Positions 35,694 through 36,124 of a stretch of DNA of 64,000 nucleotides are shown piece after piece. The notes beneath the pieces are model-generated. The model made no database searches, was not told where the DNA came from, and saw nothing but the letters and a program-made list of their open reading frames with translations. The stretch comes from Escherichia coli (GTDB taxonomy: Bacteria; Pseudomonadota; Gammaproteobacteria; Enterobacterales; Enterobacteriaceae). Position 1 is the stretch's first letter. Every line of letters starts with the position of its first letter. A program made the translations under genes and the position numbers. Location of the stretch: assembly GCF_003334815.1 (NCBI RefSeq), contig NZ_QOWO01000004.1; one strand, 5' to 3'.

Positions 35694-36087
35694 TGGTATC
35701 GGTCATTTTACCCGATGCTGCGTGACGCCTTATAACTTCAGCAATGAAGCGTTGTCTGTGGTACATGGACATTACAGCGGGGGTGTGGGTCCGGCTGTAA
35801 ATCGCCGAATCGTTTCCTGTAGGCCGGGGCAGCCCACATGGATGTGGGCTGAGGGCGCGTTTTACAGGGATGTTACCTCGCGCCCGTACCCGATAGCCGA
35901 AAGGAATAAGATGAGGGAACCGCGCCAGCGGCGATTTACCGCCGGGAGCCCGGGTTGCCAGGGTGGTGGCGATTGAGCCACCCTGGCACGTTCACCGGCT
36001 TGAGCGTTCCATAGTAGCGAGGAACATCAAGTGAACGGAACAGCCTTCGATCTTACATATTCAGAATATAATGGTGCCGCCGCGAAC

Positions 36088-36124
36088 GCCTGATGCGACG
36101 CTTTACGCGTCTTATCAGGCCTAC
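36088..36124. repeat. REP element downstream of asmA
   Basis: gcctgatgcgacgctttacgcgtcttatcaggcctac. Confidence 0.8.

Follow-up and report, generated by a model that had tools for sequence, protein, structure and literature searches.

What is the structured DNA that separates yegH from asmA in Escherichia coli? In the stretch analysed here (the window, 64,000 nucleotides of E. coli contig NZ_QOWO01000004.1), gene and open reading frame (ORF) calls place the end of yegH, a TerC family gene on the + strand, at 35693 and the end of asmA, on the - strand, at 36145. The two convergent genes thus leave a spacer of 451 bp (35694-36144), and E. coli FDAARGOS_943 is 100% identical over this region. 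A preliminary description, made from the sequence alone, had seen a GC-rich, structured and non-coding segment with two perfect hairpins upstream of a repetitive extragenic palindromic (REP) element, and had recognised in it no known small RNA (sRNA) or repeat family. This last statement does not hold. The structured part of the spacer is a copy of a dispersed repeat whose core is a diverged form of the TwoAYGGAY motif (RF01731); the spacer element is one copy of a multi-copy repeat and not a unique sRNA locus.

A conserved structure related to TwoAYGGAY

The physical features first reported for the spacer were borne out. Its GC content is 0.60 at 35700-35999, compared with 0.50-0.55 in the flanking sequence. 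Both hairpins are perfect, with 100% complementarity between CAGCCCACAT and ATGTGGGCTG (35830-35839/35842-35851) and between TGCCAGGGTGG and CCACCCTGGCA (35956-35966/35978-35988, enclosing an 11-nt loop), and the REP element lies downstream of them. The + strand of 35780-36055 is predicted to fold with a free energy of -134.3 kcal/mol, against -107.0 ± 5.5 kcal/mol for 200 shuffled sequences (z = -4.94), and because none of the 200 shuffles was as stable, the fold exceeds that expected by chance. The 102-amino-acid ORF at 35668-35976, already suspected of being spurious, begins with ATG and overlaps the yegH stop codon, and it is left unannotated by the Prokaryotic Genome Annotation Pipeline (PGAP) in the identical genome. 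The three + frames are open in 2, 1 and 5 of 40 family members, and no frame is open in more copies than this because one-base indels separate the copies from one another. Substitutions among the copies track base pairing rather than codons, and the segment is accordingly both structured and non-coding.

The repeat unit consists of a TwoAYGGAY-like core followed by a 3′ module of two hairpins (Table 1). Family members terminate at ...GTGAACGGAAC, and the sequence beyond 35772-36041 differs from copy to copy. The P1 stem that closes the core pairs 17 nt on either side (35791-35807/35929-35945, 94% complementarity) and covaries between subfamilies; in the Pluralibacter copies the P1 extension is much longer and fully paired. 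Within the core, the loop of hairpin 1 has the context AC-AUGGAU-GU, which fits AYGGAY. Its stem is replaced elsewhere by CCCACA/UGUGGG, GGCGCA/UGCGCC or CCCGCA/UGCGGG while CA(U/G)GGAUG is kept, as it also is in the Klebsiella copies that BLAST brought up. In hairpin 2 both stems, outer and inner, covary and the loop is retained. In the 3′ module, hairpin H3 carries five covarying pairs between subfamilies and is not followed by a U-tract. Stem H4 encloses a variable inner hairpin (GTTCC 36006-36010 × GGAAC 36021-36025) and is itself replaced by GCGCTCCTT/AAGGAGCGC in subfamily B, which constitutes covariation. The unpaired junction segment GGCCGGGGC and the loop CAKGGAUG are constant across genera.

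Table 1. Features of the yegH-asmA spacer, with positions in the window.
Feature	Position	Strand	Description
Locus-specific spacer	35694..35771	+	Upstream of the repeat; not common to other repeat copies; the K-12 deletion begins here
Direct repeat, first copy	35709-35716	+	TACCCGAT, 8 bp
Whole repeat unit	35772..36041	+	~270 nt, boundaries approximate; span over which paralogous and orthologous copies are similar
Core domain	35791..35945	+	155 nt, closed by the P0/P1 stem CCGGCTGTAAATCGCCG × CGGCGATTTACCGCCGG; inverted repeat I1
Hairpin 1	35830..35851	+	CAGCCCACA-UGGA-UGUGGGCUG; GGA at 35840-35842; inverted repeat I6
Hairpin 2	35853..35885	+	GGGCGCG...UUACAGGGAUGUUAC...CGCGCCC; GGA at 35868-35870
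Direct repeat, second copy	35887..35894	+	TACCCGAT, 8 bp
Small hairpin	35920..35931	+	CCGC-GCCA-GCGG, just inside the P1 3′ strand; RNAalifold helix 10, invariant across copies
Hairpin H3	35956..35988	+	11-bp perfect G+C-rich stem, 11-nt loop (UGGCGAUUGAG); inverted repeat I4
Stem H4	35989..36037	+	CGTTCAC 35989-35995 / GTGAACG 36031-36037; inverted repeat I11
REP element	36088..36120	.	Adjoins the asmA stop codon; outside the repeat unit; inverted repeat I3

The structure is also supported by covariation. RNAalifold, applied to an alignment of 23 diverged copies (alignment A4), predicted 61 base pairs, 23 of which show changes on both sides. Standard pairs fill 98.7% of the cells of these helices, compared with 89.3% in shuffled alignments and 36-43% when the pairing partners were slid. 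The 23 pairs changed on both sides compare with 15.5 ± 1.6 after shuffling (0 of 500 shuffles as high) and with 4-7 for slid partners; the covariation score is 0.287 for the observed pairs, 0.113 after shuffling (a level of 0.287 again reached by 0 of 500) and no more than 0.063 for slid partners, whose controls score 4-5 times lower. In a broader set of 40 cluster representatives, obtained by clustering 98 unique copies at 96%, double-sided changes occur in 27 of 74 pairs, each in at least two clusters. Covarying pairs are distributed over the closing stem, the junction stems, hairpin 1, both stems of hairpin 2, H3 and H4, that is, over all but the invariant helices. Conservation of the hairpins in related genomes had been set by the preliminary description as the test on which its proposal could fall, and they are kept there, with compensatory changes.

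Positions 1-168 of the Rfam model for TwoAYGGAY align end to end with 35795-35938 (31.5 bits, E = 0.017), a score below the gathering score of 43; a second E. coli copy, between lysO and aqpZ, scores 30.6 bits. Related copies do pass. Two members of the alignment, matched along the full model, exceed the gathering score (L193, 46.3 bits; L156, 44.6 bits), as does a third-subfamily copy that has the same 3′ module and lies beside a subfamily-B copy in Pseudocitrobacter (L047 2218-2281, 49.2 bits), and on the strength of these three relatives we consider the yegH-asmA element a diverged member of the group. AYGGAY in the first loop, a long P1 closing stem and covarying helices are all present. 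The second loop departs from the definition in that hairpin 2 presents AGGGAU, with G in place of Y and the GGA retained; in other copies this loop reads AAGGAU, AAGGAC or ACGGAC. Taken together, the identification as a TwoAYGGAY-type dispersed repeat is very probably correct. TwoAYGGAY was described as probably an RNA and not cis-regulatory, and was reported from the human gut, γ-Proteobacteria and Clostridiales; its P1 is in many cases very long (Weinberg et al., 2010; PMC2864571).

An Rfam scan, which had been suggested as a check and was run with permissive thresholds, was thus positive as regards a known motif class, with TwoAYGGAY and the REP-related naRNA4 family both matched below threshold, and negative as regards sRNA families, none of which was matched. 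The match to naRNA4, a REP-derived family of nucleoid-associated RNAs, comes from the REP element next to asmA (region 36049-36121) and scores 33.1 bits (gathering score 59.5).

Copies of the repeat and alleles of the locus

Copy number in E. coli was established by BLAST of a 206-nt core against 5,426 complete genomes. At least one near-full core copy is present in 5,387 of these, with a median of three and a maximum of 10 places per genome; K-12 has three. The other E. coli copies, all of them intergenic, reside at lysO-aqpZ, proX-ygaY, efeU-putP and yohP-dusC, which with yegH-asmA makes five distinct loci. The lysO-aqpZ copy is intact in K-12, at 915,012-915,296 of the MG1655 genome (+ strand).

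Copies outside E. coli were mostly collected by pattern scans for the two loops in one genome per species and in metagenomes; Klebsiella copies and one from Citrobacter freundii were retrieved by BLAST. Among the matches listed, the pattern scans found copies in E. albertii, Citrobacter, Pseudescherichia and Pseudocitrobacter, and at least three copies per genome in Enterobacter, at least four in Pluralibacter and four in Kluyvera. Matches occur in 29 of 72,556 plasmid records, several of which look like mislabelled chromosomes, being of megabase size or carrying chromosomal genes. Hardly any copy resides on a true plasmid, and spread by plasmids was rejected on these grounds.

Several of these copies have unusual arrangements. 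In Pseudocitrobacter faecalis, copies of two subfamilies stand head to head in one spacer (L047, 1854-2138 on the - strand and 2175-2425 on the + strand); the third subfamily, to which the second and more diverged of these belongs, is absent from E. coli. In Pseudescherichia vulneris (L039, 3254-3538, - strand) the core has an insertion of ~85 nt that brings in a third GGA hairpin (GCCCCAGGGAUGGGGC), which looks like modular gain of such hairpins. In Pectobacterium (L021-L023, L081) and Acinetobacter (L014, L106, L115 and others) the two-loop pattern also matched multi-copy elements that bear paired GGA hairpins and have no sequence relation to the repeat, and in Thalassotalea (L123-L125) it matched arrays of GGA hairpins. 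Rsm/Csr-type sRNAs are one possible identity for these elements, additional TwoAYGGAY-like repeat families another; of those put through an Rfam scan, none reached a gathering score.

At yegH-asmA itself the intact 451-bp allele is found in 1,425 of the 5,426 E. coli genomes (26%). K-12-type strains have a spacer of 273 bp that lacks 178 bp between the two copies of TACCCGAT, a deletion explained by recombination between these direct repeats, and with this segment both GGA hairpins are gone. A core-less allele (292-bp spacer) has lost ~160 bp, including the closed core. The shortest allele, with a spacer of 67 bp, contains nothing other than the REP element adjoining asmA. In O157 and other strains a toxin-antitoxin pair, comprising a RelE/ParE toxin and a helix-turn-helix antitoxin, replaces the repeat in a spacer of 745 bp, and composite alleles of variable length combine the repeat with the toxin-antitoxin module or with an insertion sequence (IS). 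The pair occupies 475-1093 in L254, and a remnant of it is found in strain ampC_0069 (L131 4173-4620) at the position of the REP element, ~36084-36144. Because other strains carry this pair or its remnant, the yegH-asmA spacer is a hot spot for alternative cargo. The copy of the repeat at yegH-asmA is dispensable.

A second locus is similarly polymorphic. Some E. coli strains carry a full repeat at proX-ygaY (L004 1941-2392) where K-12 has a pair of REP elements, or bacterial interspersed mosaic element (BIME; L129 3126-3316), and the two forms look like replacement rather than clean insertion.

Insertion sequences at hairpin 2

The same 1,386-bp IS interrupts two copies of the repeat: the yohP-dusC copy (L006 614-1999), for which an empty site was also found, and the yegH-asmA copy of strain ampC_0069 (L131 2575-3960). 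Both insertions lie directly 3′ of the hairpin-2 GGA, after the equivalent of 35870, with no duplication of the target. The left junction in both copies reads ...ACA(G/A)GGA-TAATGAG... and the right junction ...CCATATA-(T/C)GTTACC.... The transposase is of the IS110-family RNA-guided type (NF033542, 359 bits), and the IS has the sub-terminal inverted repeats ATGGACGCTCC.

Downstream of the transposase gene is a non-coding region of 231 bp. This region holds GAGGTAACA, which is complementary to the 9 nt lying right of the insertion point, and directly after it ACAAGG, which matches the left flank. Such a flank-matching arrangement of the non-coding region has been described for the seekRNAs of IS1111 elements (PMC11187229). 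The target stretch in hairpin 2 is TGTTACCTC, and the candidate guide stretch in the IS is GAGGUAACA. Judged from these matches, the hairpin-2 loop is the apparent chromosomal target of an IS1111-group, seekRNA-guided IS, whatever the function of the repeat. The composite of repeat and IS is covered to at least 80% at a place in 175 genomes. Repeated and exact insertion after the hairpin-2 GGA, together with a matching putative guide, would represent natural seekRNA or bridge-RNA targeting of a chromosomal repeat of E. coli, and both empty and filled sites are available for its study.

Two further rearrangements affect loops of the repeat. A copy on metagenome contig OKBG01000005.1 (L242) stops right after ACAGGGATGT at the hairpin-2 loop and runs into TCCCCCTCACCCTAACCCTCTCCCC, which by eye resembles a boxC/triplex-type repeat; this is another rearrangement at the same loop. 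In Enterobacter sp. MGH 24 (L018 ~5945-7343, - strand) an IS3-family element with orfA and orfB (orfB, NF033516, 268.6 bits) is inserted in the H3 loop.

Possible roles and known counterparts

A possible function is suggested by the loops of the core. Gardner and Eldai (PMC4333381) proposed that TwoAYGGAY RNAs bind CsrA. The consensus for this protein from the ligand-selection method SELEX is RUACARGGAUGU; its GGA occupies a hexaloop that AC/GU closes, and a single CsrA dimer is able to bridge two sites located 10-63 nt apart (PMC7652899). Hairpin 2 (UACAGGGAUGU) matches the consensus at 11 of 12 positions; it reads UUACAGGGAUGU, with the hexaloop AGGGAU closed by C-G. Hairpin 1 (ACAUGGAUGU) matches at nine of 12. 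A distance of 28 nt, inside the bridging range, separates the two GGA triplets, and GGA is present in both loops of copies that were found without a loop pattern, namely the E. coli paralogues and the Klebsiella and Citrobacter copies (BLAST) and the L047 copy (Rfam model). On the basis of the earlier proposal, the SELEX-like loops, the 28-nt spacing and the retention of GGA in both loops, the explanation that we prefer overall, tentatively and at less than even confidence, is a CsrA-binding RNA element carried on a diverged TwoAYGGAY-type repeat. Binding of CsrA at the RNA level, taken as a claim by itself, is possible rather than probable.

On this preferred explanation the element would act as a + strand RNA. 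At yegH-asmA it would be carried within the 3′ untranslated region (UTR) of yegH, to which it would belong given its position 98 nt past the stop codon and the lack of any terminator prediction in the interval. Its two GGA hairpins (CA-U-GGAUG and UACAGGGAUGU) would together hold a single CsrA dimer through dual-site bridging, and the outcome would be either titration of CsrA by a small decoy or a host transcript whose fate is tied to CsrA. A more far-reaching version, which we consider unlikely, is that Enterobacteriaceae, among them E. coli, have an unannotated multi-copy class of TwoAYGGAY-type RNAs that are transcribed and each clamp one CsrA dimer, forming a dispersed third tier of titration or cis control beside CsrB and CsrC; the number of intact copies could then tune CsrA activity by strain, and the loop would have been adopted as a safe-harbour target by IS1111 elements.

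A number of observations weigh against a role in CsrA binding. The conservation of the loops in the non-E. coli set is partly circular, since the retrieval pattern required both loops. A prediction scan of the spacer gave no sigma-70 promoter and no intrinsic terminator. The tables from K-12 CsrA crosslinking and immunoprecipitation sequencing (CLIP-seq; reads in GSE102386) list no peak for ybjE or asmA, in tables where unannotated antisense or intergenic peaks may go unlisted, and the CLIP-seq supplements searched give no coordinates for the K-12 lysO-aqpZ copy or for the searched part of the yegH-asmA spacer. The orientation is not fixed: a crude ORF-based call gave a co-directional upstream neighbour in 18 of 29 cases and a convergent downstream one in 19 of 26. 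At lysO-aqpZ in K-12 the repeat lies antisense to the genes on either side, and its GGA strand would consequently need a promoter of its own. Selection on the yegH-asmA copy must be weak, as 74% of E. coli genomes lack it or have it in a degraded form. Finally, the choice of strand finds little help in the structure itself: the two strands fold equally well relative to shuffled sequences (z = -4.94 and -4.87), and wobble cells in well-aligned helices, 24 G-U versus 14 A-C, favour the + strand weakly. Register errors in P0 and H3 inflate the raw counts (112 G-U, 33 A-C), and assignment of the strand from wobble pairs was set aside given the counts from the clean helices.

Should CsrA binding be real, TwoAYGGAY, a motif described in 2010 without an assigned function, would gain a role that could be tested in the best genetic system available, and strain-variable CsrA decoys would join a central regulatory network. 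The intact lysO-aqpZ copy of K-12 is usable for this question.

The main rival, a serious possibility even if we would not call it probable, is that the repeat is selfish or neutral at the DNA level and serves no host function. Its spread, past or present, would have occurred by gene conversion between copies or by some other mechanism. The hairpins would matter as single-stranded DNA or cruciforms, as in systems of the type formed by REP elements and REP-associated tyrosine transposases (RAYTs) or of the IS200/IS605 type, and today the repeat would chiefly be a passenger in decay that offers ISs a safe place to land. The low copy number, the dispersed positions at gene 3′ ends and the variable orientation all suit such an element, as do the presence/absence and deletion polymorphism at yegH-asmA, the exchange of REPs for the repeat at proX-ygaY, the equal folding of both strands, and the IS1111-group and IS3-family elements inside its loops. 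However, the copies lack terminal inverted repeats with a target-site duplication and a clean empty-site junction, no transposase or RAYT gene was found to accompany them, and true plasmids are almost free of the element. Moreover, 23-27 covarying pairs in a multi-helix junction, with conserved loops that match the site of an RNA-binding protein, are more typical of a functional RNA. A miniature inverted-repeat transposable element (MITE) was considered as a specific model and rejected: the long inverted repeat (P1) is internal rather than terminal, and the proX-ygaY and yegH-asmA alleles are set apart by replacement or by indels next to REPs, with neither a duplication nor a clean empty site. 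Should the element prove to be nothing more than a repeat in decay, its recognition still accounts for an odd, structured and strain-variable spacer and removes a spurious ORF.

We regard as improbable the view that the element is a generic, REP-like 3′-end structure that stabilizes mRNA, its stems shielding yegH or asmA transcripts against 3′ exonucleases, or helps to end convergent transcription, and whose loop sequences are irrelevant. It lies between convergent genes, directly after stop codons, and forms the most stable structure in the spacer, and many copies are located 44-130 nt from the stop codon of the convergent gene. Yet no stem is followed by a U-tract and no terminator is predicted, GGCCGGGGC and CAKGGAUG are conserved across genera without being needed for stem stability alone, and most E. 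coli strains dispense with the 5′ half. Still less probable is a free-standing sRNA gene of the Hfq type with its own promoter and terminator, the idea implicit in the preliminary description; a structured, conserved intergenic sequence would be expected of it, but promoter and intrinsic terminator predictions and Rfam sRNA families gave no match, the 5′ flanks are not conserved between copies, and orientation to neighbouring genes varies. That the 102-amino-acid ORF encodes a protein can be dismissed as having virtually no likelihood, for beyond an ATG-initiated frame there is overlap with the yegH stop, no PGAP annotation, disruption by indels and substitution that follows pairing.

Among known repeats, REP/BIME, ERIC/IRU, boxC and RSA ('BEE95') elements resemble this family in being short, imperfectly palindromic, intergenic, located at gene 3′ ends, multi-copy and strain-variable. 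The copy number of the present family is far lower than that of REP, and its structure is far more complex than that of REP or boxC. Compared by size and copy number only, the family may be the old RSA/BEE95 repeat: RSA measures 150-152 bp, against a core of ~155 bp here, and has six copies in K-12, against three places found here by BLAST; the size agrees, the copy number less obviously. No name for a yegH-asmA or ybjE-aqpZ RNA was found in the literature.

Repeats are established targets of IS110/IS1111 elements, with IS621 and ISPa11 inserted in REPs and ISKpn4 in attC sites (PMC11187229). The insertions described above resemble these systems in being site-specific and duplication-free at one position of a folded repeat, and the IS resembles them in its sub-terminal inverted repeats and a non-coding region that matches both target flanks. 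They differ in that the target is the GGA loop of this repeat and not a REP or attC sequence.

With CsrB, CsrC, McaS and RsmX/Y/Z the repeat shares GGA in hairpin loops, the ACA...GGAUGU context and sites within bridging range. CsrB and CsrC carry 9-22 sites, in contrast to the two per repeat unit observed here, and the repeat differs from CsrA-sequestering RNAs in having no recognizable BarA-UvrY-type promoter or terminator and no sequence homology that could be found. A further close counterpart is TwoAYGGAY itself, with which it has in common a long P1 around two adjacent hairpins with A-Y-G-G-A-Y-like terminal loops, occurrence in γ-Proteobacteria and the human gut, and the lack of a tie to any downstream gene. 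The enterobacterial family is distinguished from the published motif by a conserved 3′ module (H3 and H4, ~90 nt) that extends beyond the Rfam model, and by its existence as a multi-copy dispersed repeat.

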